DNA of 64,000 nt from Eledone cirrhosa (Eukaryota), in contig OZ024743.1 in NCBI GenBank assembly GCA_964016885.1, forward strand, positions 230,764,001-230,828,000, read 5' to 3'. The position numbers and the translations under genes were made by a program. This document shows, piece by piece, positions 3,312-63,090 of the stretch. Each line of letters opens with the position of its first letter. Position 1 is the stretch's first letter. The notes beneath the pieces were generated by a model. That model saw only the letters and a program-made list of their open reading frames with translations. It was not told where the DNA came from and searched no databases.

Positions 3312-3355
<44 letters not shown>

Positions 3356-3394
3356 GATATTAATAAATGGAAACTATATTTATAAAACCATATT

Positions 3395-3459
3395 TATTTC
3401 ATTATATATATTTCAAGGATACCAAGTTACATTATGGTATGCCTTCATCAGACAAAATA
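3395..3459 (-). ncRNA. Type I hammerhead ribozyme (family A)
   Basis: Reverse complement of 3996-4060. Confidence 0.8.
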
Positions 3460-3995
3460 CAATATATAACAGTTTTATAAATAGACATTGACGTACCCCT
3501 TTAAAAAAAGTGACCGTTGTTTTTGGAGGCCATCAGGATAGTGATTTTTTTACTTTAGTAAGTCATAGTGTTAAGAGTAAGTAAAAAGAGAGAAACGTGG
3601 AGAAAAGAAAGGGAGAGATAGATAAAGAAAAAGAAGAAAGCAAAAAGAAAAGAGAACAGAGGAAAAATAACGGGGAGATGTCAAACCATCAGACAGAGAA
3701 CAAAAATCCAGAGAGAGATATATATATAGAGATGGATTTTTTTTCTCTGTCTGATGGTTTGATATCTCCCCGTTATTTTTCCTCTGTTCTCTTTTCTTTT
3801 TGCTTTCTTCTTTTTCTTTATCTGTCTCTCCCTTTCTTTACTCCACTTTTCTCTCTCTCTCTCCATCTTTTTACTTACTCTTAACACTATGACTTACTAA
3901 AGTAAACAAATCACTATCCTGATGGCCTCCAAAAACAACGGTCACTTTTTTTAAAGGGGTACGTCAATGTCTATTTATAAAACTGTTATATATTG

Positions 3996-4060
3996 TATTT
4001 TGTCTGATGAAGGCATACCATAATGTAACTTGGTATCCTTGAAATATATATAATGAAATA
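3996..4060 (+). ncRNA. Type I hammerhead ribozyme (family A)
   Basis: Stem I TATTTTGT/ATGAAATA; core CTGATGA; stem II AGG-c-ATACCA..TGGTAT-CCT; GAAA; palindromic ATATATAT stem III; AUA cleavage triplet. Confidence 0.82.
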
Positions 4061-4191
4061 AATATGGTTTTATAAATATAGTTTCCATTTATTAATATCG
4101 TATATCTACTCCAAATATTTGTCGAGTGCTTTATATCAGTTATAAAAAATATTTGCTTGTTGTATCCCAACAATTTAAATAAAACTTTTGC

Positions 4192-8583: not shown

Positions 8584-8632
<49 letters not shown>

Positions 8633-8877
8633 TATGAAGAGAGAAGAAACATTTAGATATAATTAGTAATAAAATGTATCATACCTAAACTGCTCCTAAA
8701 TTCCTCGACTACGTAGTTACGTGGCATAAACACCGCCTCCGTGGTATTTTCTTCGTGGTTATAAGAGGCTTAGCTCTGTTTCTCGACCGTTATATCGCGT
8801 GACTATCTCCCCCTCCGCCTTTTGGGATTCTTTCTCACGTCGTGTAGACGCGTTCTTGAGACTAGTAAAATGAGGTA

Positions 8878-8965
8878 TCCTCTTGATAAGTTGGCAGACC
8901 TCGCAAGGACTCTATATCTTTGATATATTGTTTTTGTTTATGCCACGAAACTACGTAGTTGAGGA
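8878..8965 (+). ncRNA. Hammerhead ribozyme, U3-A8 core variant (family B)
   Basis: Stem I TCCTC/GAGGA; core TTGATAA; stem II GT-t-GGCA..TGCC-AC enclosing a long insert; GAAA; palindromic ACTACGTAGT stem III; GUU triplet. Confidence 0.75.
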
Positions 8966-9465
8966 ATTTAGGAGCAGTTTAGGTATGATACATTTTATTA
9001 CTAATTATATCTAAATGTTTCTTCTCTCTTCATAATGTATTTTTAACTCTGATACTGGTTCAGTCTGGTTCAAACTGAATTGGTCTGTCCCAGTCATTCA
9101 TTGAGCAACATCGGTGAAGTTGGCACCCTTAACTCACAGTTGGGTGCGGATGCATTCATGTATATATGTGTGTGTCCGCATGTATCTGTGTGTTTCTAAA
9201 TATATTAACTCCCTCTGGTCGAGCAATCTTTGAAGTGTGGGGACAACTGGAAAGCTTCCATTACTCATACTTCTCGCCTTCTTCACTACCTCTTCTACGG
9301 CCTCGATATGAATACCCCCTCCGCCTCCGTGGTATTTTCTTCGTGGTTATAAGAGGCTTAGCTCTGTTTCTCGACCGTTATATCGCGTGACTATCTCCCC
9401 CTCCGCCTTTTGGGATTCTTTCTCACGTCGTGTAGACGCGTTCTTGAGACTATTAAAATGAGGTA

Positions 9466-9553
9466 TCCTCTTGATAAGTTGGCAGACCTCGCAAGGACTC
9501 TATATCTTTGATATATTGTTTTTGTTTATGCCACGAAACTACGTAGTCGAGGA
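9466..9553 (+). ncRNA. Hammerhead ribozyme, U3-A8 core variant (family B)
   Basis: Same fold as 8878-8965, with a GUC triplet. Confidence 0.78.
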
Positions 9554-9784
9554 ATTTAGGAGCAGTTTAGGTATGATACATTTTATTACTAATTATATCT
9601 AAATGTTTCTTCTCTCTTCATAATGTATTTTTAACTCTGATACTGGTTCAGTCTGGTTCAAACTGAATTGGTCTGTCCCAGTCATTCATTGAGCAACATC
9701 GGTGAAGTTGGCACCCTTAACTCACAGTTGGGTGCGGATGCATTCATGTATATATGTGTGTGTCCGCATGTATCTGTGTGTTTC

Positions 9785-9829
<45 letters not shown>

Positions 9830-10089
9830 AAGTATATATATATATATATACTTTTGAATTGATCCGCATTCCATGGACCTATGATACTGCCGAATAGATT
9901 TACATATTTTAATTAACCCCTTTACTCAGCAAGTGCCACAGCAGCTGAAATAACGATGTCAACGGCAATATTAATAACGTTAATTAAAGGAACTGCTTTT
10001 CCTCTATTCTGCGCCAATGCATTAAACCTTCGTTTCCTGCATTACACTGGTTTCCTGCATCTGGCTTTAGCGTGGACGCAGTACAGTCG

Positions 10090-22643: not shown

Positions 22644-22770
22644 AAAATCCTTTTATACAGCTCCAACCGGGATTGACTGTAGCATATTCAATATTACATA
22701 TATGATTGGCACTTTCCAGCCCGATTAGTTGAGCACTCTACAGTTTTCAGGAATTTAACCAGCATACACC

Positions 22771-23403
22771 ATGGACCTTTATGATTTGGATTATTCAATC
22801 AAAAATATACCCACTCCTTCCAACACAACTTACACCAAAATCCTCATAGACAAAATCGAACATGTCGTTAAAAGAATGAGATGGAAGGCAATAGATTACG
22901 ACGGACTATTCAGGGCTGATACTAAAGATTGTTTTGACATCAAATCTCGTAAATATCCACCTAGAATTAAAGACATGGCCAGCTTCGAATTAGACCTCGT
23001 TAATCTAATTAATGATATCAAGTTTCGTAAGTACAATAATAACTTTCAAACCAAACTTTTTAACGATATTTCTGATTTTAGAAATTCTACAAACACTTTC
23101 GTTCTTTCTAATAAAACTAAAAACCTCTTTGAAGTTAATGGTACTTTGTATAACCAACTTTTAACTAATAGTATTACCAATAAATATCAATTAACTAATA
23201 ATAATACCTACAATACTATCAATAAAGAAGCTAAAGAACTAGCTAGTTCTTTACAAATAGATAACCGGATTGAAAGCTTAGCTAAGAGTAAAGCATATAT
23301 TACCTTTAAAGACCATAAATTGGACTTTACTAATCGACCTAGTTGTAGATTGATTAACCCGGCTAAATCCGAGGTTGGCCTTGTAAGTAAGAATATCTTA
23401 AGA
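22771..23403 (+). pseudogene. PLE ORF N-terminal region, truncated before the RT core
   Basis: The 230 aa ORF matches PLE N-termini up to SKNIL, then reads into a SINE head. Confidence 0.85.
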
Positions 23404-23460
23404 AACTATGCTGGAAAGCATGGCGTCCGACCCTCTACCGACACTGCCAATCCACCGCCC
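23404..23460 (-). mobile_element. 5' head (57 bp) of the tRNA-SINE embedded in the PLE
   Basis: aactatgctggaaagcatggcgtccgaccctctaccgacactgccaatccaccgcc is nearly identical to 50617-50672. Confidence 0.9.
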
Positions 23461-23746
23461 TAGACATTTTTAATAATGCCACCCCTTATTATAATAAAGC
23501 CCTTAAGAACAGCGGTTTTACAGAAAACATTTCTTATTCACCTACTCCCCCCCCCCCCGTAAAACTAACCACAATAACAGGAAAAGGAAGATTATTTGGT
23601 TCACACCCCCCTTCTCTCTAACTGTCAAAACTAATGTAGGAAGGAAATTCCTTGAACTATTAGACAAACATTTTCCTCCTAATCATAGATATTATAAGAT
23701 ATTTAATAGGAACGTAGTCAAGATCAGCTACTCTTGTTGCCCATCT

Positions 23747-24208
23747 ATGAAGTCCAAAATCACCAGCTCAAACCGGACGAGAATAAATCCAGGATGCAGT
23801 TGCAGGAAGCCGGACGAATGCCCATTGCAGGGTAGATGTAACACTAAATCTGTCGTTTATGAGGCTACGATAACACCAGTAATCAACAACCAGCCAGCCA
23901 GGAGTGAGCGATATGTCGGTATGACCCAGGACAGGTTTAAAACCAGATTTTACTCACATGTCGCTTCCTTTAAGCACTCCGATAAACGTACATCAACGGC
24001 CCTCGCAAGTAAGGTGTGGGAACTCAAGGATAGTAACATCCCGTACTCTATTGATTGGTCTATATTAGACCATTCGAGGGAGTACCAAAGGGGCACAAAG
24101 AATTGTTCTTTGTGTACCACAGAAAAGTATAGGATTTTGCTAAACTTGAGAGACACTTCCGCTTGCCTTAATTCAAAGACTGAGATCTCAGATGCTGTCC
24201 TCATCTGA
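23747..24208 (+). pseudogene. PLE GIY-YIG endonuclease domain
   Basis: CSCR..CPLQGRC..VVYEATI..YVGMTQDRFKTRFYSH..CSLCTTEK..LNSKTE. Confidence 0.9.
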
Positions 24209-24467
24209 GACCGCACCTGATCTGTAACTGGATTGACACTCCTATGAGAAATCAACCGCCTTGACTTTTGCTACGGTTTTTATTTTACTGTTTCTACGTT
24301 CTGTACTCTTGTATATTTACATTTATTATATATTTTTTCTCCCTTACCTCCCCTTATATTTTACCTTCTCCTATGAGCCCCCCCCCCTACCCCCCACATA
24401 TATTCTTTTTGCCTTGCCCTCCACATACCTATGTGTATGTGTATGTATATTTGTGTGTATATATGTA

Positions 24468-24498
<31 letters not shown>

Positions 24499-24642
24499 AT
24501 ATAGATATATGTGTGTATGTGTATGTGTGTATGTATATATGTTTATACGTATGTGTGTGTGTGCCTGTGTGTATGTATTTATATATGTATGTATTTGTGT
24601 GTGTGTGTATATATGTGTATGTGTGGATAAGCCAGGTTTCTC

Positions 24643-24703
24643 TCATTCTGAAGATTGTAGGAACATTTTTTTTTTTGCTTTTAAGAAACCCTTGGTAAAT
24701 GGA
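24643..24703 (+). ncRNA. Hammerhead ribozyme in the 3' pLTR (stem II degraded)
   Basis: TCATT CTGAAGA ... GAAACCCTTGGTA AATGG. Confidence 0.65.
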
Positions 24704-26960: not shown

Positions 26961-27048
26961 TATGTATATATATATATGTATGTATATGTATATATATATG
27001 CCTATTCCATCCCGCCCGTCCCCTCAATCTATCATATTTGTAATTTTT

Positions 27049-27084
27049 TCTTCTGATGAAAGACTAGCGTCCGAAACGTTAAGA
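27049..27084 (+). ncRNA. Minimal PLE-type hammerhead ribozyme
   Basis: TCTT CTGATGA A AGAC-TAGC-GTCC GAAAC GTT AAGA; loopless palindromic stem III. Confidence 0.8.
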
Positions 27085-27168
27085 CCCTCTTCCTGCTATA
27101 TCAAGCGTTAACCTAATATATCCCTTCCATATACTGTACCGATTGTGTTGTTATTTCTCTTTACCTTT

Positions 27169-27201
<33 letters not shown>

Positions 27202-27797
27202 CAATGCTTACGTTGACCTCTCAAAATTCGTTAGATTTTCTGAATGGATTTTACATCGAAGCTGGATACCAATCCGGTGTACACCTGAACTTCCACAAGG
27301 AAATATTTCGTATCCTTGACATTTTCTTTGCTTCTGGCATTTAAATATTCCACGACTCTCTGTACCACTTTTCCTCTACTATAGTCTTCTTACATCACTT
27401 TCTTTTCACCCCTCTATTTTTCACTCCCACCCTAGTACCTTCAATATGCCCAATCTCAAATCTTTTCTCCACCAGCTCCATTCTACACTCAAGCGCTTCC
27501 TCCAACCTCTCCCCTCCCCTATATGCATCCAATCCTTCCTGCATCTATCCAACCTCATCTTTACCAAAACACGATAAAACAGTCACATCACATTTTTAAG
27601 TCTCTGTCTCCACCAACATCTCATTCCCCGCGGGTTTAGCATCAAGTTTCACCCCACCTCTTACTCTGCTCCCACCACTGAGCCCATCCTTACCCGGTCC
27701 TCTCGCCAGCTCTGCGGGCAACCATTCGATCAACTCTCTCCCAAATCCGTTATCTCGACCGAGATCCCCCCGGGGCCTATTTCCATCTCTCCTCTAC

Positions 27798-30200
27798 TTG
27801 CCCCACTTCCACGCCCAATCCCTTATCCAATTTATCCTTTACCTCAATCGCCTCCTTTTCAATTTCCTCACTTCCGTAAAACAACACAAACTCGACTCTC
27901 TCCGCACCCCGCCTGCCGCCACCACTCATACTCATATCACCTCCAACCCTAACCCCTCTAACCCGTCACCTACCACCCCCTTTCCTCTCCCCACCATTGA
28001 ATCTGCCCACCGTTTGCCCAACTACTTTGACCCCTCCGCTTCCGACTCTTTCACTCCCTCACGTCCCTGCACTGTAGTTACCATACCCCAGGACCTACCA
28101 CTATCCGAAGCTGAGCGCTCCCTCCTAGCCCGTGGTTTGCGTTTTATACCAACCACATCTACCTGCGACGAGTTCCGCACACGTGCCGAGATGGAAGAGT
28201 TCTTCCGTCGATTAAAGCTGAAAGCTTTTTTTCACGACATGCCATCATCGACACAGACGGATGACTTCATTCGTCTCAGTCGCCGGCAATCACATTGGAC
28301 GCCGAGTTCTGACCAGTTCAGCACCCTCGACTCCTTTGTAGATACTTACCGGCGTACGGTGAATCGGTTCCGTTCCCACCAGCATTCTCCTCGCGCTAAC
28401 ATCACGCGGACTGAAATCTCCGCTCTTCGCAAACTTCAGCCTCGTGATCACAGTGTCATTAAACCCGTTGACAAAGGTGGCGCTGTGGTGGTTTGGAGTG
28501 CTGACCTCTATAGGGCTGAGGCTCTCTGCCAGCTTCACAGTGCCTTTATATACCGCCCTTTATCCTCCGACCTCACTCCTGGCTACCAACATCTCGTGAC
28601 CTCCACCATTCACGAGCTCTTCTCCTCCTCTCTCCTTCCCCCACAGCCACCAACCTTATTGTACGCACCCCCTCGCACACTCACCAACTACTTCACCCCA
28701 AAATACACAAACAAAATAATCCTGGCCCTCCTATCGTTTCTGCGTGCAAATACCCCACCGAGATAATTTCTGACTATTTAGACACCATCCTCGCCCCGTT
28801 AGTCTGCAATCTCCCCTCGAACATCCACGATACAAATCATGCCCTTAGACTCTTCAACTCGTTCTGCTTCCCTCTTGGTTCCTCCCACTTTCTCTTTACC
28901 CTGGACATCACCGCTCACTATACCCTCATCCTTCATGATGACGGCCTCCTCGCTCTCCAACATTTTTTAGATTTACGCCCTACCCCTTAACCCAGCACTA
29001 CCACTCGTCTCCGTCTGGCTGAGCTTGTTCTCACCCTCAATGGATTTTCTTTTTCGGGTGAATTTTATCAACGGGTCTCTGGGGTAGCGATGGGAACCAG
29101 AATGGGTACAAACTATGTAAACTTGTTTATTGGCTACGTCGAAGCCCATATCTTCTCCCAGTACGCTGGAACGACTCCTGAGCTATACGGTCGTTATATT
29201 GACGACTGTATCGGCACCACCTCTCTATCACGAGAACAGCTCGACTGTTTTTTTTCTTATGTTCAATCTTTCCATCCTGCTCTTAATTTAACCGCCTCCC
29301 ACTCCGATTCTTCTGTCGCTTTTCTAGATATCTCTCTATCTATTAACCACTCTCACTGCACCCTCTCTACTTCCAACTTCATTAAACTAACATACTCCCA
29401 ATCTTCTCTCGACTTCACCTCCTCCTCTCCAACAAACACAAATACTCCATACCCTATTCACAATTCCTCCGTCTTTGTCGACTCTGTAGCCAGGACGACG
29501 ATTTCGAAACCCATTCCCTTCGCATGGCTTCCTCCTTCATCCAGCATGGATATCCCCCAACCTGATACAAGCTGCTCTCACCCGCGCCCGTGAAACAGAC
29601 CGCACCACAGCCCTCTCACCTCACCCCTCCCTGCCAACACCCGTGTTCCTTTCCCTCTCACCTACCACCCCACTCTACGATTCCGGTGACATATCCTGCG
29701 TTCCTTCCATATCCTCTCTTCTGACCCCGTTATTTCTCGCTTTTTTCAAACCCACCCATTACTGCTTTTAAACGCGCCCAGAACCTCCACGACTTCCTGG
29801 TTCGCAGTTCCTTTTCATCCTCTCCCACGACTCCACCCGTCTCTCATCCTTTTTTCCCGTTCCCGCTGCAACACTTGTCCCTTTATTTCCACCCTCACCA
29901 CTCTTACAGGCCCTAACGGGTATTTCCATATCCACCATTCCTTGTCTATGCCCTCCGGTGTTCGCTTTGCGGGTCTTTATATATCGCACAAAAGAGGCGC
30001 CGTATGGCGGACTGTTTTGCCGAACATTTGAGGGACATACAACTCGATTTGGATACTCCTGGAGCCCTTCATTTCTGTTCTCCTGGTTATTCTTCCATAC
30101 ATGTTTCAGTCAAGGGTGTCATGGATCACAGACCTGGTGCACCAGGACTGAACAAAGTCTGATTCACTGCCTTGGGTCCTATTCCCTCTTGGACTCAACT
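27798..30200 (+). pseudogene. Frameshifted PLE reverse transcriptase/endonuclease ORF
   Basis: ORFs 27798-28766 and 29090-29593 carry the DKG motif and the RT motifs GVAMGTRMG and YIDD. Confidence 0.88.
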
Positions 30201-30459
30201 CACCTCCCCAATTTCTCTAATACCCCGTCCATTATCACACCACTAGATTCCTATCGCTTTCTCTTGATCATTACAATTAATACATGCCGACTATATATGC
30301 TCACTCCACTTTTCCCTTCACTGCTCTGTAGACACATATACACAACAACATATTAACATACTTTTGCTCATGGCTTCGTACTTACATGCACACACACACA
30401 CACACACACTCTTTTACTCACATATACACATACGTTTAGCTTCGTACCGACGTATAATA

Positions 30460-30495
<36 letters not shown>

Positions 30496-30771
30496 CCACA
30501 CATACACACACATACACACACACATACACACACACACACACACACACAAACGCATGTGCACATGTATATTTCTTTTTACAAAACGTATTTTTTCATTTCA
30601 GGTAGACGCGCTCCATCATCCACTTTTCTAAAAATTAAATCATACACAAAAAGTCAGCACCAACAGGTTTGCAAGTGATGTCAACATGAATGGACCAGTT
30701 ATTTTTATCTAAAGATATTTATTCCAATTCCATCCCGCCTGTCCCCTCAATCTATTTTATTTCTCATCCTT

Positions 30772-30807
30772 TCTTCTGATGAAGGACTTGCGTCGGAAAC
30801 GTTAAGA
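30772..30807 (+). ncRNA. Minimal PLE-type hammerhead ribozyme (3' pLTR)
   Basis: TCTT CTGATGA AGGAC-TTGC-GTCG GAAAC GTT AAGA. Confidence 0.78.
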
Positions 30808-30909
30808 CCCTCTTCCTGCTATATCAAGCGTTAACCTAATAAATCCCTTCCATAGACTGTACCGATTGTGTTGTTATTTCTGTTTACCTTTTACACATAT
30901 ATATATATA

Positions 30910-31017
30910 TAATTGTTTCTACTTTTCGCACAAGGCCAGCAATTATCCCAGTGTATTACTGGTACTTTATTTTATCGACCCCGTAAGGATGAGTGGCAAA
31001 GTTAACCTCGGCGGGAT
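30910..31017 (-). mobile_element. tRNA-SINE 3' half
   Basis: Reverse complement of the SINE core and tail. Confidence 0.8.
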
Positions 31018-32918: not shown

Positions 32919-33950
32919 GTTTAATAAATGAACAGGGAACAAAAAACAGAGAGACAGTACAAATGATATTGTTTTTAGTTTCACGCCTGAGAGTGTGGGG
33001 TGGGGGGGGGGGGGGGGGGGCCGGCGGCGACGTTTCGGGCATATGCCCTTCATCAGGAGAACAGTGGGTAGGAAGAGAATTCCGAGTGTGTGTGGGGGTG
33101 TGGTGGAAAGACATTTAAAAAAAGAGGGGGAGAGAAAAGGGATGAAAAACAATATTTTTAGAGAGTAATATATATATATATATTTTTTTTTAATCTTTGA
33201 TATGATCAACCTGATGTGCTTTTGATCAGGTTTCAGAGGAAATTAGAGGAAAAGCAGTGCGTATAATTTTTGAGTTTTCGCATATTCGTATATACACGTG
33301 TCTGTGTGAACGTTCTAATGTTTCTGGGATATCTGTCCATCAATTTATAACCGACTCACTGTTGGTCCACACTGCTAATCTGTGCCTTTTGCGGGTATTG
33401 ATTTCATGGAGACTTCCAATATTTTGGGATATTTGCGAGACATACGACTTTTGAGATCTGGTATATTTTATCATTTTTGATATAGCCGTTTTATTTATCG
33501 AAATTAAAGATGTATTCAGGATTTTGTGTAGTCGTTCCCAAAGTTGTCTTTCAATAGACAAGTGTTATAGCTTATTTCCTGCTTTTCCTGTCTTTACAAA
33601 TATTCCGTTTGATTTCTATGATTCCCATGATGGTAGGCACATTTTCCTTGAGGGTGTTGTATATTTTCTTGAAGTTTATATTCTTCCATACTTTAAATAA
33701 CTATTCTTCTCCAATCATTCTTCAGAGAAAAGGTTTGAGTAGTTTATCCCTGAATGGCCCCATCTGGTACTGAAAACGAATTTAGAATAATTAGTAATAT
33801 CTTTCACGCATTCTTTGTCGAAATAAAAAAAATGCCTTGCAGCAGATACATTTGGTTAGGTTTCAATATTTAAACAATTATTGAAATGGGTTTCGATGGA
33901 TATTCTCTGATATTTGTGGAAAATTCTATCAGATGAAATTTCAGCAGTTA
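32915..33950 (-). mobile_element. Decayed PLE 3' portion (GIY-YIG remnant and pLTR)
   Basis: Frameshifted endonuclease-like sequence upstream of an HHR-bearing tail. Confidence 0.6.
33026..33059 (-). ncRNA. Minimal hammerhead core (stem I disrupted)
   Basis: CTC CTGATGA A GGGCA-TA-TGCCC GAAAC GTC. Confidence 0.7.
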
Positions 33951-37829: not shown

Positions 37830-38050
37830 CCTCTCTGTACCTTATTCTCATACGTTTATTTTTCACTCCCACTCTAGTACCTTCACCAATTCTACCTCGC
37901 CCGTCCCTTCAATCTATCTACTTTCTCATTCTTTCTTCTGATGAAGAACTAGCGTCCGAAATGTTAAGACTCTTTCTGCAATTTCAAGTTAATATATTCC
38001 TTCCTTATACTGTAACGATTGTATTGTGATTTCTGTTTACCTTTTACATA
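37830..38050 (+). mobile_element. Solo pLTR of the Neptune-like PLE, with a minimal HHR at 37934-37969
   Basis: Similar to 27000-27172 and ends in (TA)n. Confidence 0.8.
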
Positions 38051-40373: not shown

Positions 40374-40413
<40 letters not shown>

Positions 40414-40458
40414 TCAATGATATTAAGTAAATGGAAACTATATTTATCAAACCATATT

Positions 40459-40518
40459 TATTCTATTATATATATTTCAAGGGTACCAACATTTGGTACG
40501 CTCTCATCAGATAATATA
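40459..40518 (-). ncRNA. Hammerhead ribozyme (diverged family A copy)
   Basis: CTGATGA GAG-c-GTACCAA-ATG-TTGGTAC-CCTT GAAATATATA; stem II covaries with 3996-4060. Confidence 0.78.
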
Positions 40519-40614
40519 CAAGGTTTGATTTATAAAAATTGACATAACCAAGAAAAAATACCTTAACGGTTCAAGTTTTTCCTGGATAGTCATATATATA
40601 TATATATATATCAC

Positions 40615-40975
40615 TCAGAAGGTGTATGGGTGCTACACGAAAATGCTGAGGATGGCTCCGTACATTAATCAGTATACACTGAGGATGAAAATCTCAGAGA
40701 TGTATGGGGGCCTTTCAAACGTCAGCTCAAAAGTGATACAGAGGAGATTGAGGTTAGTTGGACATGCTCACCGAAATCCAGAGTTGACTTCACACTCAGT
40801 GCTCCTGTATGGACACACTGGAAGCGGAAGACCAAGGTTAATGTATGTTGATGCCCTAAGGACAGACTCTGTTCTGTTGGAGACGCAGGACATGGCAGTG
40901 ATAATGAGGGACAGAGACCGCTGGAGAGATCTCATCCATGGAACTCGGGAATTTCACCCGCCCTAGATAGATATA
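40615..40975 (+). mobile_element. RTE-clade LINE 3' end
   Basis: GCYTKMLRMA..YGGLSNVSSKVIQRRLRLVGH..GRPRLMYVDAL..MRDRDRWR, followed by a (TAGA)n tail. Confidence 0.8.
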
Positions 40976-41338: not shown

Positions 41339-41576
41339 CGTTTCTGAATTTGTTTAGCAATATTCTTTATCTGAAATCGTGTGTTGAAACCGATATTGTT
41401 ATACTTTGGGAGGGTCATGTTGCCAATAAGAAACACACGCACCAGTTGCTTTCACTTCAATTTAATTTATTATATATTTATAAATTTGTAAATTTATAAA
41501 TATATAATAAATTAAATTGAAGTGAAAGCAACTGGTGCGTGTGTTTCTTATTGGCAACATGACCCTTCCAAAGTAT

Positions 41577-47544: not shown

Positions 47545-50410
47545 CGCACGATAGCAATTAACAGCGCTGCGATCGGATGTGGCTTTTTAGCCTAGCCAAT
47601 GATCTAAAATGTCTTGCACAGATTTGGCAACCAAAACATTCACTGGGAATAGCCGGCCTCTAAACCGTCACGCAGAGAGATTTCCAAAATCTCGACATCA
47701 CTGATGTGGTCCCTCCAGTGAACGCCATGGATCCGTCTGAGATACATCTGATGGAAACGCTCCAATTTGTTAAGGTGGTGGCGATATGTGACCCAGGTCT
47801 CGCAGGCATAGAGAAGAGAAGAGCGCACACATGCCTTGTACATCTTTACCTTTGTCTTCCTGCATATGTCTCGCCGACCCCAGAGTTGCCTTTCCAGCAG
47901 CTTTCCGAAAGCATCACTTGCTTTTCTAATCCTGAGTGGGATTTCATTATCAAGGTTGCTGTATCGATTGACAGTGCTTCCCAAGAATACAAACTGATCA
48001 ACCACTCCAAGTCGTTTACCATACACATAAATATTTGGTTCCCTGTACTGCCTACCGAGGGCAGGTTGGTACATGACGACGGTTTTCATGAGACTGACAG
48101 TCAATCCTAGAGCAGTGCAAGCATCACAAAATGCATTCAAAATGTGCTGCATATCACTCTCTGTAGGCTACAACATCGCAATCATCTGCATACAAGAGGT
48201 CTCTTATGATTGATGTAAATATTTTTGTTTTTGCAGCAAAGCGCCTGATGTTAAATATGCTGCCAGAGGTTCGATATCGGATGTAAACACCATGCTCGCA
48301 ATTCCTGAATGCAATATAGAAAACCATTGCAATGTTTATGGCAAACAGAGTCGGTGCTGGAATATCCACCTGTTTCACTCCATATTTTACTGAGATAGGC
48401 TCCGACATATTACCTCCGACATTAACCCAAGCCTTCATGTCGTCAAGGAAAGACCTAACCAAAGCAAGGAACTTATCAGGGCAACCAAGTTTCTGGAGCA
48501 CCTTCCATATTGCATTTCTGTTAACAGTATCGAAAGCTTTTGTCAGATCGACAAAAACCTGATATAGATCCAAATATTTTTCCATGCACTTCTCCTGGAG
48601 CTGTCTAGCTGAGAAGATCATATCAGTAGTGCCGCATCCAGCACGAAAACTAGATTGAATTTCAGGAAGAACACAATCTGCAATGCGTGTCAGCAGACGG
48701 TCCAGAAGCACCCTACATAAAACCTTCCCTACGACAGAAAGCAATGATATACCTCTGTAGTTGTCACAATCATTCCTGTTACCCTTTCCATTGTACAAGA
48801 CCACCATTACTGCATCTCTCCAGAAACAAAGAGTGAAGATGTTGCAGAAGTCTCTCACCACGATATTGTAGGAGCTCTGCATGTATGCCATCCATACCAG
48901 GAGACCTTCCACTGTTCAGCTCCGAGATAGCTACTGCAACCTCCACATGCGTCGGAGTTTCTGCGAGAGCCACTTTCACAGGACTTTCTGGAATAAGATT
49001 GAGGACATCTTCATTGACGACAGACGGCTGATTCAAAAGTTCATAAAAGTGCTCTCGCCACCTTCCTAGAATTCCTTGTGAGTCACGAAGAAGTTCTTTG
49101 CCATCCTTGCTGCGAACCGGTGTCACCAGAAAAGAAGACGGTCCATAAACCCCACTGAAGAGTCTGTACAACAGCTTTGTGTTATTGTAATCTGACGCAG
49201 TTTGTATCTCATCAGCTTCCTCACTCCACCACTGATTCTTCATCTCAGAAAGTCTCCACCTAACACAATATTTCACATCCTTGAGTTCCCTTTGCAACAT
49301 ATTCTTCTGTCGTTTTAGCGTCAAGTAGCGTGACAGAGCACGCCTCTTATCAGCCAACAAGTCTTCTATATGGTCATCATTTTCCTTAAACCAGTCTTGA
49401 TGTTTTCTCTGCACCAATCCCAGAACACGCCTGCCTACATCATAAACCGACTTTTTAATGGCAGGCCAATCCTCACTAGGATTTGCAACCTGCATATCTT
49501 CTCGCAATGTCCTCTTCACATTTTTATCCCTAAGACGAGCAGCATTCAATCTTCTGTGCAGGGTAACACCAGGAGCCCTGATTTTACTTTTAGTAATTAG
49601 TTTCCCTTTTGTGCGCACCAGGCGGGGTCCGTCCAGCACTCAACTCCACGAAGAGCACGAACACACTGCACATCCCGTCTGTCACGCATCCTGACAAGGA
49701 CTTAGTCTAAAATATGCCATTCCTTAGATGCAGGATGCATCCATGTAGACTTAAATTTGTTCTTTTGTTGGAACATGGTGTTGGTAACACACAGATCCAG
49801 CTCTTCACACATCTGCAACATGAGCATACCATTGTTGTTAACTTCCCCACTCATGCCTTCCGATTACATTCCATGTGTTCAAATCGCTACCCACTCTAGC
49901 ATTAAAGTCACGAAGCACGATGACTTTGTCTGCCTAAGGGATATTTCTTAAAACACCTTTCAAGGCATGGTAAAAGGACACTTTTTCTTCATCGACGTAA
50001 TTCATAGTTGGAGCATGCACACTCACCAGGGCCGCATATCTTCCTTTGTCCAGCGGAATTATCATGGACATAAGACGCTCACTAATCCCTACTGGGAATT
50101 CTTCTAATTTATCCACAAGAACAGTCTTAACAGCAAATGCTACCCCAACCTCTCTTCTTTTCCAGAAAAATGTACATTCTCCTCAAAATCCGTAAGATGA
50201 CCATCTCCAGCTAAACTCGTCTCAGATAAAGCTACAATGTCAAGATCGCAACGTCGAAGCTCCTTTGCAACAAGAGCGTTCCTTTGTTCAGGGCGTTCCA
50301 AGGAACGTCCGTATGTCCCAGCAGCCAAGACTAAATGTCTTGTTTGGCTCTATTACAGTGGCACGATGACGAGCGGGATCAGGCTGTTATAACCTGGGGA
50401 CCCTGCCCCT
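47545..50410 (-). pseudogene. RTE-BovB-like LINE, near full length but frameshifted (APE + RT + C2H2 end)
   Basis: DIVALSET; NYRGISLLSVVGK; QSSFRAG..TTDMIFSARQLQEKC; FVDLTKAFDTV; GVKQ; LLYADD; LLYACETW; CQICARHFRSLARLKSH. Confidence 0.93.
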
Positions 50411-52575: not shown

Positions 52576-53047
52576 AAAGTTGTTGTTTTCTTAAGGCCCG
52601 ATCGCTGGTGATGGTCATGGTGAGGGTGGCGCTGAATGGTAGTGGTGATGGTGGTGGCAGTTGATGTTGTTGCGTTGTGTGTGTGCGTTACTTTTTTTGT
52701 TTTTTTTAATCGTCAGCTGTTGTTGTTGTAAATGTTGTTCATATCATTTCATTCTGAAGCTGTTGTTGCTGTGAAAATTAGTGCCGGTGTTGTTGTTGTA
52801 GGTGTTGGGGTTGAACTCTGGTCTTTGACTGAGTGATGTATATATACACACACACACACACACACTCCTTCTGACTAGCCTCTGTGTCACGTGATTGATT
52901 CTTTAGAATCGGCCATTTGACTAGAAGCAGTGAGGATTTCAGTGCATGGAATTCAGTCCTCGCTACCTGTTCCATCTACCGAATTATTATTATTTTTATA
53001 TGAGCCGCCAGTGTCCGCGCATTGCCTGGAAACTTAGCTGATAATAG

Positions 53048-53129
53048 ACTCCCTGATGACGCAATGAATTCTCGACAGTTAGATTAAGTAACTGTCTTTA
53101 TCCCATTGCAGAAACTAATTAGTTGGAGT
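53048..53129 (+). ncRNA. Type I hammerhead ribozyme with an extended stem II (family C)
   Basis: ACTCC/GGAGT; CTGATGA; GCAATG/CATTGC plus GACAGTTA/TAACTGTC; GAAA; palindrome ACTAATTAGT; GUU triplet. Confidence 0.87.
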
Positions 53130-53613
53130 GAAAATTTAAGTAAGTAAGTAAAAAAATATTTAAAAAACATTTTTTTTTTGAAAAAGATTTTCTTATTTTA
53201 CGTCTTTTATATTATTGTTCTGCATCCTCCTGCATTGAACCACCTAGGTACTATGACATAACCTGTGTATTTGCTGGCATAGGCGTGCATCTGTGCGCTT
53301 ATGTTAGTTGATATATTAAATTATCTATATTTATCTCCAAATCACTGATTTGTCGAGCAAACCTGCCAAAACCACTTCTAAAAAAATTTTTTGGGGGGTG
53401 TTAGTAGGCGTCAGTCATCTTACCATCCCATTCCTTCTGACTAGCCTCTGTGTCACGTGATTGATTCTTTAGAATCGGCCATTTGACTAGAAGCAGTGAG
53501 GATTTCAGTGCATGGAATTCAGTCCTCGCTAGCTGTTCCATCTACCGAATTATTATTATTTTTATATGAGCCGCCAGTGTCCGCGCATTGCCTGGAGACT
53601 TAGCTGAGAATAG

Positions 53614-53695
53614 ACTCCCTGATGACGCAATGAATTCTCGACAGTTAGATTACGTAACTGTCTTTATCCCATTGCAGAAACTAATTAGTTGGAGT
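53614..53695 (+). ncRNA. Type I hammerhead ribozyme (family C, second unit)
   Basis: Same fold as 53048-53129. Confidence 0.87.
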
Positions 53696-53972
53696 GAAAA
53701 TTTAAGTAAGTAAGTAAAAAAATTAAAAAAAAATTTTTTTTTGAAAAAGATTTTCTTATTTTACGTCTTTTATATATATATATATATATATGTGTAGATA
53801 AATCTACCAAAATGTACGGTAGTGTCCAATCCGTATGAAGAATTCAATGTAATCCGAATATCATGAAAAGAGAAGATGTATTAAAACATTTTTTTCCGAT
53901 GAAAAATACAGGAAAACAGAGTCAAGATAAATTAATAAAAATAATGAATAAAAACAAAGAAACAGTTCCTTA

Positions 53973-56392: not shown

Positions 56393-58180
56393 AGAGTATT
56401 GAAGTCTGCTTGAAGCATTGTGGAATAATAAGGTAAATTTCTTTAAGGCGTTTGGAAGCCTTGACAATGCAGATGGGTAAATCTCCGGGTAACAGGATCC
56501 GGTGGTAGAGAGAGAGAGATGTAAGTGGGTGTACGTTGAGATGGTAATCTCTACTCCAAGGTCACGGGAATCACTCTCGCGCAGATAGAAGAGCACATCA
56601 ACGCCGCCTGGACCAACATCTGCGACCGGCGGAAGCACCCGAAGAAGCTGAGATACAACCTCCTCACGAGGAACAGCAGACTACCCGCCTTCTACCACCT
56701 CGTGAAAACACACAAACAGGGACCCGACCTGAAGATCAGGCCCATTTTATCGAGCGTGGAAGGACCACTCTACAAAATGTCATGGTTCCTAGCCAGAATA
56801 CTCAAACCTATCTTAGACTCCTTGCCGGACACGTTAACAGCTCCAAGGAGGTGTTGAAGCGCCTGCGTCAAATGGATCCCGACACCAGAAAGAATAACAG
56901 ATATGACTTCAGCCTTGATGTAGTCGCTCCCTACACTTCGTTCCCGGCACTCCCGGCCGTCAATATACTGATGGAACGCGACCAAATCCACCGACCTACA
57001 CTGCTTCGAGCTCACCACCACTGACATCCATCAACTACTATCCATCGTCGTCGACAACACCTATTTCGGATTCCTTGACCAGACATGCCAACAAACCTCG
57101 GGACTGCCCATGGAATCAAGCCTGTCGGGTGTGTTAGCGATCACTTACATGGACAACCTCAAGCGCAAGGCACTCAACGCCTGCCACCCCAACGCCGTCG
57201 CCTTTTTCTCAAGGTACGTGGACAATATCCTCATCCTCACATCTTCCCAAGACATGGCGAACAGAATCTAAGAGACGTTCAACAACACGGACGAGAACAT
57301 TGACTTCAGTGTTGAACACCCCAACGAAGACGAGTCACTTGCCCTCCTCGACTTCCGAATCAACATCACGGAACAGGGAGGGATCCACTGCAACTTCTAC
57401 CGAAAGGCAGCCTGCAGCGACATGTTCGTCCACTACAAGTCCGCTCTCACTAACAGTGCCAACAGAGGATACATCACAAACGAGATCGCGCGAATCAAAA
57501 ACAGATGCAGCGATCCCGAGAGTGGTGTCACTCATACCAAGCGATTCCTCGAGGTGCTGGAGACGAACGGGTACCCTACCTCGCTCACGGAGAGAGTAGG
57601 ACACACCAGACACACGAGACAGAGAGGCACCCAAGGCAAGTGTTTCCTTAAAATGTCACACTTGGGCGGGAATACCACCAACGCTATCTGCAAGGCTATA
57701 CGGAGGGAGGGCCTTGTCATCCACCTGGCCCAAACGGGCCCCTCCCTGCGAAGATGCCTCTCCAGGAAACCCGGGAAATCAACTGACGCGTGCTCCCTCA
57801 GAGACTGCCCAATGCGCCATGCGAACTGTTGCCTACGCACATACGTCGTGTATAAGATAGAATGTAACAAGTGCAACCAATACTATATAGGTGGCACAAT
57901 CCGGCCGTTGCACATCCGGATCAGGGAACACACTAAAACCAGGGCCTCGTCTTTCCGGAAACACATAGCCAAATGCGGAAACAAAGACGGAAGGCCCATT
58001 GTCACAATTCTAGCGACAGAAATAAACGTCGGCACGTTACGTACCAAGGAAACACTTTGGATCAAACGCCTAGGGCCACAATTAAACAACCGATCCAAGA
58101 GAAGCGAAATGAGGTGGTTGGTTTAAGTTAACAAACGATGCAGCAACACACGCACACACAAACACAAACGAGACATCAAC

Positions 58181-58219
<39 letters not shown>

Positions 58220-58794
58220 CAGTAGCATTCCACCATTCGAACATACTACACTGCCAATACAGAGGAACAAGGCAACAACACACGCACACACACACACACA
58301 CTCAAGTGACACAACAACACACGCACACACACACACACACAGTAACATTCAACACACAGGCAGAGAATGGACTAACAGCTAGCGCCACCCCTTTCCCACA
58401 ATTGAAAGAACTACTTCGGCCGCTGACCTCTGCCTGACCGACCACATTACACAGCGCACGCGCGCTCTGCTGAATACCTCAGATATTCAAAACAACGAAC
58501 AGTGGGACACGTTTCGCACCTTTCCGACAGACAACCTTTCTCCCACTCCGGAAAATACTCCCAGTTGAAGGATTTGAAACCGAAATATATAGGGACAATT
58601 AAATCTCTCGCAAGGTTGTTATTTTTATTTTTATCCTTTACGCTCTATCCTTCATTCCTCTACACGTCTTATACACGCCATTCATCTCAACGTACACCCA
58701 CTTACATCTCTCTCTCTACCACCGGATCCTGTTACCCGGAGATTTACCCATCGGCATTGTCGAGGCTTCCAAACGACTTAAAGAAATTTACCAT
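56392..58794 (+). mobile_element. 5'-truncated Penelope/Poseidon-like element with an inverted 5' pLTR, within (TA)n
   Basis: RT remnants KIRPILSS, QQTSGLPM..LSGVLA, RYVD. ORF 57422-58126 carries the thumb and GIY-YIG (VVYKIECNKCNQYYIGGTIRPLHIRIREH). 56430-56545 is inverted relative to 58680-58794. Degenerate HHR at 58558-58596. Confidence 0.9.
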
Positions 58795-58857
58795 ATATAT
58801 ATATATATATATATATACGATATTAACAAATGGAAACTATATTTATAAAACCATATC

Positions 58858-58922
58858 TATTTTATTATACATATTTCAAGGATATCATGCTAAATTATGG
58901 TATGCTTTCATCAGACAAAATA
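58858..58922 (-). ncRNA. Hammerhead ribozyme (family A copy)
   Basis: TATTTTGT CTGATGA AAG-c-ATACCAT..ATGATAT-CCTT GAAATATGTATA ATAAAATA. Confidence 0.72.
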
Positions 58923-59036
58923 CAATATATACCAGTTTTATAAATAAATATTGACATACCCTTCCAAAATGCAACCGTTACTTGTGGAAGACATCAGGGA
59001 TTGTCGAGGCTTCCAAACGACTTAAAGAAATTTCCC

Positions 59037-59093
<57 letters not shown>

Positions 59094-59096
<3 letters not shown>

Positions 59097-59265
59097 TAAA
59101 TTTCTTTAAGTCGTTTGGGTAAATCTCCGGGTAACAGGATCCGGTGGTAGAGAGAGATGTAACTGGGTGTACGTTGAGATGCGTGGCGTGTATAAGACGT
59201 GTAGAGGAATGAAGGATAGAGCGTAAAGGATAACTAAAAGCATGGACAAGAAAAATAAAATGAAC
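59094..59265 (-). mobile_element. Extra pLTR 3' fragment of the 56392-58794 PLE
   Basis: Reverse complement of ~58620-58794 with an internal deletion. Confidence 0.8.
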
Positions 59266-61203
59266 CAAGTCAGTCAGTCACATCTCGTCAGCCTACCGCT
59301 AGAGGTACGTTATTTCAGTGCTTTAGGATCGATTTCAACTGGCCTTAGTACTCAAGGGATAGTAACAAATGAACAAAGGACACGAATGGAAATTGTGTCA
59401 TATTTATATTAATTCGTAAATTTTTAACCACGAGAACTATTTTTTCATATATGTATATATAATCGTGTGTGTGTGTGTGTATGTGTGTGTGTGTGTGTGT
59501 GTGTATGTGTGTGTGTGTGTGTGTTTCCGCGCGCGTGCGCGCGTGTGTGTTTCTATATATTTATAAATACTCTATAAATGTATTGTATGTCACATTTTTA
59601 ATAATTGCAAGTAGATTATGGGTGTATCTGAGAGAATTACGCAATCATTAAAGACAGATGTCTGTCTAAAATATCAAAACAGCGAGAACAATCTGGAGAT
59701 AGATATTTTAGTACTGCAATACTATTAAGTATTGATCACTCTTCATCATTCGTATCCTGCCATCCCGTACAGTACATCCATCATTCGTATCATGCAATCC
59801 GGTACAGCATATTCAATAACGTTCTGGTCGGGTACCAGCAAACCTCTTAGGGTACCTTGGTGATGAGAGTTGCAAATGGCCTGGAGTCATTGATCACATA
59901 AAAGTGGAAAGACTATTGGAGACATAGTTTCCTTGGTCTGATTTGGCGAGAGGCAGCTTTCATTTGTTTTGTTTTTTTCTGTTTACTTGTAATGCAGTTA
60001 ACTCAATTAATGTTGGTGGTTTGGCTGTTACTCTCGCTTTATGAAATTCTGTTGATAATAATATAGGACATGATAGGGGTGTTATCCCTACAGTAAAACC
60101 ATCGAAGAAGCTTCATGCATATGTATTATAACGATACAATTGCAACGGATGTCGGTTAACCATGTAAGGGTTGAGATTGTGATTCATGAACTGGTGTCAT
60201 CAAAAGTATTGCCGAAGGAGCGTGAACTTATTTACAAAATTCAAGTACGTTGTAAAACATGCACTAAAGGTTATCCAATTTTTTCTGAGTTAAACAGTTT
60301 TCATGTTCTATTGCTACACTCGCTGCATGGTAATGTGAAAAGGAAGCTATTCTTTGGGGCTCTGTTGAAAACATGATTTAAGCACAAGATGCAGTGACAC
60401 TTTTGGGAATCACTGGTTTGTGTGAAAACAGTTAAGAGCTGGAGTTGTATTATTTATGAAAGGCAGGATAAAGTTTAAATCAACTATGAAATGGTTAAAC
60501 TTAGAACGATGTTAAAAGAAATTACTATTATTATATTCTTAGAAGAAATAAGGTTCTCATACTGTTCAACAATCAGCTCTATCTTCCATTTCTAATTTAA
60601 GAAGTTATGTACTTGACGGAGAGACAAATTAATGTCATTTAGTGCAGTATGACATGTTTTCGTATAAGTGTTGGAAACTGAGTCAGAAAGAAGACGATGG
60701 TATGTTTTCTTGTCGATATCATATCGATTTTTCGTTTCATCAAAGTTTACCAAGAGATTAAATTACTTCATGATGCTAAGATTATTTCTGGTTTTCTTTG
60801 AATATATTAGTTCTATTTTTAAATTTAATATTTTTATTATTATCTATATTAAGAAAAGAACACATCTTCGAATGTTTGCGATAAGGGTTCAAATAGTTGT
60901 TAGGAAAATGAATGTGTTTTTTACCCAGGTATTATTTATTTAGTGAATTTATTTATTTATTTATGTAGCTATTTATTTTCCTGTCATATGTAGCATGGTT
61001 TCATAGCATTGAAATGCATTTATTTCAGAATTAATGAGGTTATAATTGCATCTTAACAAGTCCATTCAATGTTGTACACACACATTCATATGTATTTATA
61101 AATTCATACATATATACGTGCAAACACACACACAGACACACACACACACAGAGACCAAATACATATCTGCATATATGCATATATATATATATATATATAT
61201 ATA

Positions 61204-61255
<52 letters not shown>

Positions 61256-61261
<6 letters not shown>

Positions 61262-62497
61262 GAAACACACAGATACATGCGGACACACACATATATACAT
61301 GAATGCATCCGCACCCAACTGTGAGTTAAGGGTGCCAACTTCACCGATGTTGCTCAATGAATGACTGGGACAGACCAATTCAGTTTGAACTAGACTGAAC
61401 CAGTATCAGAGTTAAAAATACATTATGAAGAGAGAAGAAACATTTAGATGTAATTAGTAATAAAATGTATCATACCTAAACTGTTCCTAAATTCCTCGAC
61501 TACGTAGTTTCGTGGCATAAACAAAAACAATATATCAAAGATATAGAGTCCTTGCGAGGTCTGCCGACTTATCAAGAGGATACCTCATTTTACTAGTCTC
61601 AAGAACGCGTCTACACGACGTGAGAAAGAATCCCAAAAGGCGGAGGGGGAGATAGTCACGCGATATAACGGTCGAGAAACAGAGCTAAGCCTCTTATAAC
61701 CACGAAGAAAATACCACGGAGGCAGAGGGGGTATTCATATCGAGGCCGTAGAAGAGGTAGTGAAGAAGGCGAGAAGTATGAGTAATGGAAGCTTTCCAGT
61801 TGTCCCCACACTTCAAAGATTGCTCGACCAGAGGGAGTTATTAATATATTTAGAAACACACAGATACATGCGGACACACACATATATACATGAATGCATC
61901 CGCACCCAACTGTGAGTTAAGGGTGCCAACTTCACCGATGTTGCTCAATGAATGACTGGGACAGACCAATTCAGTTTGAACTAGACTGAACCAGTATCAG
62001 AGTTAAAAATACATTATGAAGAGAGAAGAAACATTTAGATATAATTAGTAATAAAATGTATCATACCTAAACTGTTCCTAAATTACTCGACTACGTAGTT
62101 TCGTGGCATAAACAAAAACAATATATCAAAGATATAGAGTCCTTGCGAGGTCTGCCGACTTATCAAGAGGATACCTCATTTTACTAGTCTCAAGAACGCG
62201 TCTACACGACGTGAGAAAGAATCCCAAAAGGCGGAGGGGGAGATAGTCACGCGATATAACGGTCGAGAAACAGAGCTAAGCCTCTTATAACCACGAAGAA
62301 AATACCACGGAGGCGGAGGGGTATTCATATCGAGGTATCCTCTTGATAAGTCGGCAGACCTCGCAAGGACTCTATATCTTTGATATATTGTTTTTGTTTA
62401 TGCCACGAAACTACGTAGTCGAGGAATTTAGGAACAGTTTAGGTATGATACATTTTATTACTAATTATATCTAAATGTTTCTTCTCTCTTCATAATG

Positions 62498-62500
<3 letters not shown>
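61256..62500 (-). mobile_element. Family B retrozyme-like element, second locus (591 bp period, ~1.8 units plus an inverted arm)
   Basis: HHRs at 61493-61580 (-), 62084-62171 (-) and 62338-62425 (+); (TA)n at both ends. Confidence 0.9.
62338..62425 (+). ncRNA. Hammerhead ribozyme, U3-A8 variant (family B)
   Basis: TCCTC TTGATAA GTcGGCA..TGCCAC GAAACTACGTAGTC GAGGA. Confidence 0.78.
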
Positions 62501-62520
<20 letters not shown>

Positions 62521-62528
<8 letters not shown>

Positions 62529-63090
62529 CGTAAAATAAAAAAATTATAGTAATTAATTCATTTACTTAAATTTCACTCCAACTAATTAGTTTCTGAAAGG
62601 GGATATTCATAGTCTCCAAATGGAGACCATAGAGAATCCTTTCTTCATCAGAGAGTCATTCTCGGCTAAGATTCCTGACGATTCGTGGACACTGGGATCA
62701 AATACAAAAATAATTTAGTGGACGGAAAAAAGCTAGCGTGGACTAAATCCCTAACCATTGAAAAGTTCACTGTCTTCCTGGTCAGTGGCAAATTCAAAAG
62801 AATCAATCACGTGACATCGAGGTTAATCAGTGAGGTGTGGAATGTTAAAAAGACAGTAGCCAAGTTTAATACTATGAAACATAGTAGTAATTTAGGCAAA
62901 TTTTTGCTCAACAAAATAATTTGGAGATAATTATAAAGAATTACTATATCTACCAACATATTTATACAGATGTATACTTACGCTAGCAAATATATAGGGT
63001 TTGTCTTAGTAACTTTGTGGTTCATTACAAAGAGATGCAGAACAATTATATAAAAGACGTAAAATAAGAAAATTATAGTAATTAACTCAT
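62521..63090 (-). mobile_element. Diverged family C unit (529 bp period, ~1.1 copies) between (TA)n tracts
   Basis: ataaaagacgtaaaataa at 62521 and 63050; colinear with 52867-53772. Confidence 0.85.
62575..62656 (-). ncRNA. Hammerhead ribozyme (diverged family C)
   Basis: ACTCT/GGAGT; CTGATGA; GAAAGG/CCTTTC plus TATGGTCTCCA/TGGAGACTATG; GAAACTAATTAGTT. Confidence 0.85.

Follow-up and report, generated by a model that had tools for sequence, protein, structure and literature searches.

Results

A hammerhead-bearing repeat at 62520..63087

The window (the whole 64,000-nt stretch of Eledone cirrhosa DNA that was analysed) carries at 62520..63087 one copy of a non-coding repeat family, which has units of 517-571 nt and a type I hammerhead sequence with a covarying long stem II. 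No reading frame of at least 120 aa overlaps this insertion or the reference insertion at 52863..53776. Tandem copies in the host genome are spaced by 517-571 nt in 43 of 46 cases, indicating short tandem units with one type I hammerhead sequence each. As the earlier note had described, the insert is built on a 529-bp unit. The terminal motif lies at 62520 and again at 63049, and the overlap between the unit ends spans 47 bp at 93.6% identity. The features are collected in Table 1.

Table 1. Positions in the window of the features of the 62520..63087 insert and of the reference insert
Feature	Position	Strand	Remarks
Whole insertion	62520..63087	-	529-bp unit and ~40 bp of the unit before it; partial tandem, truncated at its 5' end; (TA)n on both flanks
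GAGAA leader 5' of stem I; predicted pseudoknot 5' strand	62659..62663	-	
Stem I, 5' strand	62652..62656	-	
Hammerhead core CUGAUGA (positions 3-9)	62645..62651	-	
Position 10.1	62644	-	A here, C in most copies; no standard pair with A11.1 at 62594
Extended stem II	62595..62643	-	Proximal helix, 62643-62638 with 62600-62595
Stem II loop strands and distal hairpin		-	5' strand, 62637-62632; hairpin, 62631-62608; 7-nt 3' strand, 62607-62601
UUCUC in the stem II internal loop; predicted pseudoknot 3' strand	62632..62636	-	
GAAA box, palindromic stem III and GUU triplet	62580..62593	-	Predicted cut between 62580 and 62579
Stem I, 3' strand	62575..62579	-	
Antisense segment, complementary across the cut site	62823..62839	-	A single change weakens it here
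First of the family's two fixed 3' ends: terminal motif, then (TA)n	62520..62535	-	Repeated at 63049-63064
'Tail' region of ~117-125 nt with a long covarying hairpin	62932..63048	-	End near 62932 is the second fixed 3' end
Reference insertion, another subfamily	52863..53776	+	1.6 units of 566 bp; two hammerheads (53053, 53619)

The type I hammerhead-like motif lies at 62575-62663 on the minus strand; it and the two motifs of the reference insert each contain a 49-nt stem II, flanked by the unpaired positions 10.1 and 11.1. The motif of the family has the core CUGAnGA, the GAAA box, the A15.1-U16.1 pair and an NUH triplet, which is GUU in 123 of the 125 aligned copies described below; its three stems are open at stem I, and 96-98% of alignment cells are paired in stems I-III. 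With a cut-off of E=1, a scan with Rfam models did not recover any hammerhead family; its matches were miRNA models on microsatellites. Positions 10.1 and 11.1 never form a standard pair in the 125 rows (CA in 115, AA in nine and TA in one). A GUU triplet and an unpaired 10.1/11.1 position usually slow hammerhead cleavage. Natural mismatches at the 10.1-11.1 pair are on record (Perreault 2011, PMC3088659), and eight of nine Xenopus retrozyme dimers showed no cleavage in vitro (Li et al. 2026, 10.64898/2026.07.22.740005).

Compared with the hammerhead at 53053-53129, the core CUGAUGA, the GAAA box and stem III are identical, and stem I differs by a change from C-G to U-G, exactly as had been reported. 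The sequences given earlier for the proximal helix (GCAATG/CATTGC changed to GAAAGG/CCTTTC) are also correct, but the change is not wholesale, since it affects two of the six pairs, both on two sides. Likewise, the sequences of the distal helix stand, but its 11-bp extent does not: it leaves a 2-nt loop, and a helix of 9-10 bp with a 4-nt loop folds instead, of which the outer four pairs alone can be aligned across copies. The 62520..63087 copy further differs from the 53-kb reference in a C to A change at position 10.1 and in a linker 5' of stem I that is one base shorter. The two units are 76% identical over aligned columns (395/519).

Copy number, subfamilies and sampling

The exact 21-mer that covers the GAAA box, stem III and the cut site has 9,320 matches in the 3.0-Gb host genome and none when reversed as a control, and the pattern of core, UUCUC and GAAAC is found at 7,795 genomic places. 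What had been described as a lone diverged copy belongs, as an ordinary member, to a subfamily that has 231 pattern matches genome-wide and in which the foot of the distal helix is usually C-G and in this copy is U-G. Copies with both core halves numbered 162; after 12 truncated or rearranged ones had been removed and duplicates merged, 125 distinct rows were left, a non-random sample made up of the first matches on contig 1 and of loci picked for diversity. The core is present across all subfamilies, at a mean identity of 79%. Mosaic tandems exist in the family: in the tandem inserts L037, L109 and L111, adjacent units are strongly different or belong to different subfamilies, which suggests template switching or repeated insertion at one site.

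Stem II is maintained by compensatory change

In the MAFFT alignment of the 125 rows, standard pairs occupy 95.9% of 2,489 cells, compared to 41-47% with slid partners, and two-sided change is seen in 275 cells, compared to 95 in shuffles. All four outer distal pairs covary. The pair 34-84 takes all four Watson-Crick forms (AU in 44 rows, GC in 31, UA in 27 and CG in 21) and is broken in one row of 125. Covariation was tested with a script of our own that resembles R-scape without being R-scape (G-test with APC against 120 null alignments simulated on the tree). The result showed that three of the 20 proposed pairs, namely 34-84, 50-70 and 48-72, all in stem II, reach E<0.05, so that the lack of significant covariation by which the earlier note would have abandoned its claim was not observed; when all 5,460 column pairs were tested, none reached E<0.05 and the best gave 0.14. 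In a tree built from the 190 nt upstream (95 of the 125 rows), stem II types fall into clades. The inner distal helix with its loop is 13-25 nt long, and the 3' loop strand measures 7 nt in 123 of 125 rows. Among 55 full units, seven of 153 consensus pairs have p<0.01 (1.5 expected), four of them in stem II. The four forms of pair 34-84 and the significance of 34-84, 50-70 and 48-72 make it almost certain that stem II is under selection at the RNA level.

A predicted pseudoknot links the leader of stem I to an internal loop of stem II

A GAGAA found 7-9 nt before the core is the complement of UUCUC, the invariant strand of the loop, and the helix that the two would form (columns 11-15 with 43-47) is paired in 94.7% of cells over the 125 copies. 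In a subfamily with 566 matches the two strands read GGAAA and UUUUC, a change from G-C to A-U in 25 rows and, at the adjacent pair, from A-U to G-U in 26 rows. When stem III was allowed other loops within this architecture, a search gave 72 matches, compared to four in the control; the distant families so found consist of few decayed copies whose homology is judged by architecture alone. In one distant locus (L071) GAGAA and UUCUC are kept while every helix has changed, in two others (L078 and L079) the strands read AAGAA and UUCUU, and in a further one (L080) AAGAA faces the strand UUUUU, which keeps the pairing through a G-U pair. The chance of an equally long complement, given local composition, was 0.0006, 0.006, 0.01, 0.017, 0.043, 0.083, 0.146 and 0.455 in the eight cases calculated.

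The pseudoknot pair alone is not significant in the tree-aware test (p=0.024, E=0.48), and the change within the family amounts to one event. The version rich in A and U is weak. The pairing is broken in 13 of 125 rows, a number enriched by the choice of loci among variants in which the middle G of GAGAA is changed. There are 84 such variants genome-wide, scattered over subfamilies and almost all uncompensated, and they include the 53048 reference copy, the first hammerhead of the 52863..53776 insert, in which a private change to GATAA breaks the predicted pseudoknot. A search for family-wide compensatory change by way of the middle-G variants found sporadic changes only; they make up two of 100 copies in the subfamily checked, a rate as expected from decay after insertion. 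Eight contig runs yielded 17 short contigs, mostly of low depth and of uncertain origin, a sample too sparse to be used; no listed substitution falls in their pseudoknot 5-mers, and one contig has an inserted base in the loop strand. Two candidates were rejected: an apparent GAAAA/UUCUC clade was a product of sampling (GAGAA stands in 98 of the 100 copies listed), and a pairing of the 3' loop strand with the 3' strand of stem I was not kept in the GGAAGUG subfamily.

Taken together, the complementarity and its partial maintenance suggest that GAGAA and UUCUC probably form a pseudoknot. The tertiary contact that had been proposed for the internal loop can thereby be specified as a predicted 5-bp pseudoknot with the stem I leader. 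The accompanying proposal, that the loop binds the reverse transcriptase (RT), found no support, and RT binding would be better sought, by analogy with a Penelope-like element (Frangieh 2024), in the region that holds the two fixed 3' ends described below. Pseudoknots between stems I and II occur in ~40% of hammerheads and are activating where tested (Perreault 2011, PMC3088659).

The same pairing can be read in the opposite sense, as an attenuator of the kind reported for the satCYDV-RPV (+) hammerhead, with an inactive monomer and cutting only as a double hammerhead in multimers. Attenuation and the double hammerhead are reportedly the subjects, to judge by titles, of work by Miller and Silver in 1991 and by Song in 1999. 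Where stem II begins, the satCYDV-RPV ribozyme has a C and an A that do not pair, resembling the family here. It is a type III hammerhead of a plant virus satellite, with a terminal loop 1 and an AUA triplet, whereas the present one is a type I hammerhead of an animal genomic repeat, with GUU and with the leader in place of loop 1. Both have a segmented long helix II with internal loops (Carbonell 2006, PMC1636495 Table 1). A stable pseudoknot between loops 1 and 2 is described for satCYDV-RPV, which De la Pena 2021 (PMC7936874) names as another pseudoknot case, and the pseudoknot predicted here would likewise join the loop 1 region to that of helix II. Stem III is also palindromic in this family and in the distant families. 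However, the pseudoknots tested by others activate (Perreault 2011, PMC3088659), a mirror-image termite ribozyme cleaves at 0.96 per min (De la Pena 2021, PMC7936874), and the family already has a separate predicted block, the antisense segment. We thus consider attenuation unlikely and prefer an activating pseudoknot.

A segment half a unit away is complementary to the cut site

When 28 non-redundant units were folded as circles to a consensus, columns 208-223 paired with columns 460-474 in a duplex that spans the cut site. In the cases listed this antisense segment lies 241-253 nt upstream, about half a unit; its commonest form pairs over 14 bp with U17 unpaired, and the duplex reaches up to 14 bp and -17.5 kcal/mol. 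Compared with 30 shuffles in each of 13 units, the duplex was better than all in seven, better than all but one in two and unremarkable in four, which include the reference subfamily and the 62520..63087 copy. The segment lengthens with a one-base insertion in its target, and the GGAGUG and GGAAGUG classes each favour their own target (-15.3/-12.9 and -12.8/-15.8, a margin of 2.4-3.0 kcal/mol); a third class, of three units, does not discriminate. The best antisense column pair gave p=0.022 and E=3.4, and in the neighbouring 591-bp family a segment of this kind is not better than shuffles (11/30).

Single-sequence circular folds were computed for 45 of the 55 units, ten with a damaged motif being excluded. 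At P>0.5 the antisense pairing formed in 31 of 45 units, stem I in two and stem II in 33, and the blocked fold was lower in energy in all 45, by a median of 7.2 kcal/mol in models that omit pseudoknot and tertiary energies; the active fold is disfavoured by these models because such contacts are left out. In the 62520..63087 copy the pairing is weak (P=0.11). These models make it reasonably likely that the antisense segment blocks the cut site in a circle. Splinting of the cleaved ends by the same segment was dropped as a claim and kept as a possibility only, both ends being held in one of eight linear-monomer folds. Most metazoan retrozyme circles lack a blocking sequence, some mussel ones excepted, according to Cervera and de la Pena 2020 (PMC7229834), where RtcB is also reported to ligate retrozyme monomers far better than self-ligation.

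A more sceptical reading would take stem II as merely a stable folding hairpin, and both the GAGAA/UUCUC match and the antisense match as chance or as leftovers of an old inversion. Neither pairing passes a family-wide covariation test alone, and the whole unit is structured, with its seven consensus pairs at p<0.01, as this reading expects. Against it, the two 5-mers have changed jointly in one large subfamily and in one distant family, the length of the 3' loop strand is nearly constant, and the antisense segment tracks an insertion in its target. We regard it as improbable, and retain the predicted pseudoknot and antisense block.

Inserts have the anatomy of Penelope-type copying

The analysis covered 106 complete inserts. 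Of the 164 3' ends in these, 74 lie at the unit end (no more than 65 nt away), 80 at the tail end (100-130 nt into the next unit) and ten elsewhere; (TA)4 follows 142 of the 154 ends at fixed sites. An inverted part is present in 59 of 106 inserts. Among the 58 inserts with two 3' ends, 48 have one tail end and one unit end, ten have an irregular end and none has two alike. The 48 free 5' ends are scattered along the unit, insert length ranges from ~0.3 to >2 units, and a same-orientation run exceeds one unit in 58 of 106 inserts.

The inserts thus show 5' truncation, partial tandems, inverted 5' copies, a one-ended tail, two 3' sites downstream of the hammerhead and an AT-rich microsatellite target, (TA)n. 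Penelope-like elements share these features (PMC8557442, PMC11167929): partial tandems, inverted copies, the one-ended tail and (TA)n targets are described by Craig 2021 (PMC8557442), and the tail has been shown to lie between two internal RT start sites (Frangieh 2024, PMC11167929). The family differs from those elements in having no reading frame, a tail of ~120 nt compared to 30-40, and a hammerhead that is not of their minimal type. Penelope-type copying of the family is highly likely.

The earlier note had attributed the monomer with its overlap to reverse transcription around a circle. The layout is compatible with this origin but is not diagnostic of it, given the range of insert lengths and the scattered 5' ends; the ~40-bp overlap is one ordinary truncation point among many and no proof of a circle. 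All 9,320 matches span the cut site, and therefore the templates were continuous there, either uncut or re-ligated; since loci were chosen by a motif that spans the cut site, inserts that start at it are uncountable in this sample. A circle may accordingly be unneeded: the template could be an uncut linear tandem, the ribozyme slow or assisted by protein, and the antisense segment a means of keeping the RNA uncut for RT to read through. Such a route is compatible with our preferred reading. It is favoured by the anole Penelope-like element, the single one tested in vitro: there the template was mainly linear RNA that had not been cleaved, unprocessed RNA inserts, ribozyme mutants insert normally and the ribozyme needs protein (Frangieh 2024, PMC11167929). 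Partial tandems and tails are also typical of Penelope-like elements without any shown circle (PMC8557442), and this family has mosaic tandems. On the other hand, conservation of the core in all subfamilies implies that cutting matters at some step, runs of more than one unit need restoration of length, other animal retrozymes accumulate as circles (PMC7229834), and the antisense segment sits half-way round the unit. A template without a circle is therefore rather unlikely in our view, and a circular one is somewhat favoured.

Penelope-like elements abound in the host genome, intact 714-aa frames among them, and Xenopus retrozymes resemble pLTRs (Li et al. 2026, 10.64898/2026.07.22.740005), so the repeats might be solo pLTRs shed by an autonomous element and not mobile as a family of their own. 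However, the 106 sampled inserts have (TA)n or other flanks on both sides and their own pattern of tails and ends. A search of 60 of 10,597 GIY-YIG candidate loci, one young family and the elements of the window did not find an autonomous partner whose pLTR is related to the unit; among the matches listed in this search, the strong ones were insertions of the repeat family itself. On the inserts and loci covered, shedding as solo pLTRs is very improbable, and the family is a likely non-autonomous Penelope-like element, that is, a non-LTR retrozyme.

Other repeats in the window and genome

A second repeat family, with a unit of 588-591 bp, is present at 61186-62523 and 8604-9850. It has a hammerhead-like core UUGAUAA (the U3-A8 variant), a long branched stem II, a palindromic stem III, GUC, an inverted part and a (TA)n end, and the 62520..63087 insert sits head-to-head in the (TA)n end of its copy at 61186-62523. 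The U3-A8 core has been described for a Schistosoma Penelope element (PMC4209133).

At 22759-24700 lies a broken copy of a young Penelope-like family with many genomic copies that have 714-aa open frames. From its motifs, we take this family to be Neptune-like. The pLTR of this copy contains microsatellites and a hammerhead variant at 24648; this hammerhead is unrelated to the repeat unit, and the element was rejected as the partner. A degenerate Penelope-like element at 26992-30911 has RT-like frames between two direct repeats with minimal hammerheads (27053, 30776), a related repeat lies at 37938, and another minimal motif is found at 33056 on the minus strand. A further hammerhead-like family, with an AUA triplet, a (TA)-type palindromic stem III and inverted arrangements, occupies 3330-4108, 40390-40549 and 58631-59233, one copy adjoining a GIY-YIG frame at 57272-58126 (Pfam E 1.4e-4). 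Fragments of a reverse transcriptase frame at 47640-49639 (minus) and 40529-40966 are presumably from an RTE-like LINE, by their motifs. The long perfect inverted repeats at 41414-41563 and 3646-3797, on which plant miRNA models score below threshold, are probably inversion junctions of repeats.

Elsewhere in the genome, the low-copy families L072-L077 and L081-L085 combine a palindromic stem III and different loops with a long stem II whose foot has an unpaired A or C opposite A. The unpaired 10.1/11.1 design is thus recurrent in the host genome.

Discussion

The reading that we prefer, with a probability of about 60%, joins pseudoknot-activated co-transcriptional cutting, ligation, an antisense lock and Penelope-type copying. 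Tandem copies would be transcribed, the GAGAA leader and stem II being made before the cut strand, so that they could pair as a pseudoknot that may substitute for the usual contact of loops 1 and 2 and align stems I and II. The ribozyme would then cut during transcription, possibly as a dimer through the palindromic stem III, and the released monomer is predicted to be ligated by a host ligase. In the refolded circle, the antisense segment half-way round is predicted to pair over the junction and to stop re-cutting while stem II is still formed. A Penelope-type RT-endonuclease would nick (TA)n, and RT would start internally, either ~60-80 or ~180-200 nt beyond the cut site, and copy through the junction to give truncated, tandem and inverted inserts. 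Selection would act on the copied RNA, genomic copies decaying afterwards. Going further, and tentatively, the RNA might be a two-state switch, in which the pseudoknot pre-assembles the ribozyme for cutting, the antisense segment locks and perhaps splints the circle, and a Penelope-type enzyme copies it from two internal sites.

The family resembles animal non-LTR retrozymes (PMC7229834; 10.64898/2026.07.22.740005) in being non-coding short tandems with one type I hammerhead per unit, in numbering thousands of copies and in co-occurring with Penelope-like elements. Its units of 517-571 nt compare to 170-400 in Cervera and de la Pena 2020 and fall within the 51-972 of Li et al. 2026. It differs from those retrozymes, as far as the accessible parts of the papers go, by a long two-part helix II (~4 bp there), an unpaired 10.1/11.1 position, the predicted pseudoknot and the predicted antisense block, and it is known here from DNA alone. 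Non-LTR retrozymes have already been proposed to be non-autonomous Penelope derivatives (Li et al. 2026; Cervera 2014).

The hammerhead also recalls the mirror-image design of HDV-like circRNAs (PMC7936874), which has a short stem, an internal loop and a capping hairpin of ~20 nt, a conserved 5' loop strand that pairs with the other arm and a 6-bp helix II. There, helix I carries the internal loop, whose partner is loop 2; in the present family helix II carries it, and its predicted partner is the leader of stem I. A literature search, with most subscription papers and supplements outside its scope, brought up neither a genomic type I hammerhead whose pseudoknot involves an internal loop of stem II nor a description of a one-ended tail in a retrozyme.

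The findings bear on a question raised by Cervera and de la Pena 2020, namely what prevents a circle from being cut again, for which this family carries a built-in candidate block. Penelope-like mobilisers have earlier been proposed, by the same authors and by Li et al. 2026, from co-occurrence and sequence likeness, and the inserts described here bear the Penelope-specific one-ended tail. The thousands of copies in many subfamilies amount to a natural mutagenesis of an unusual hammerhead that Rfam models miss, of use for ribozyme design and circular RNA production. If the two-state switch is true, the satRPV ribozyme design would gain its first counterpart in an animal genome, and the inserts would directly record the mobilisation of a retrozyme by Penelope enzymes.
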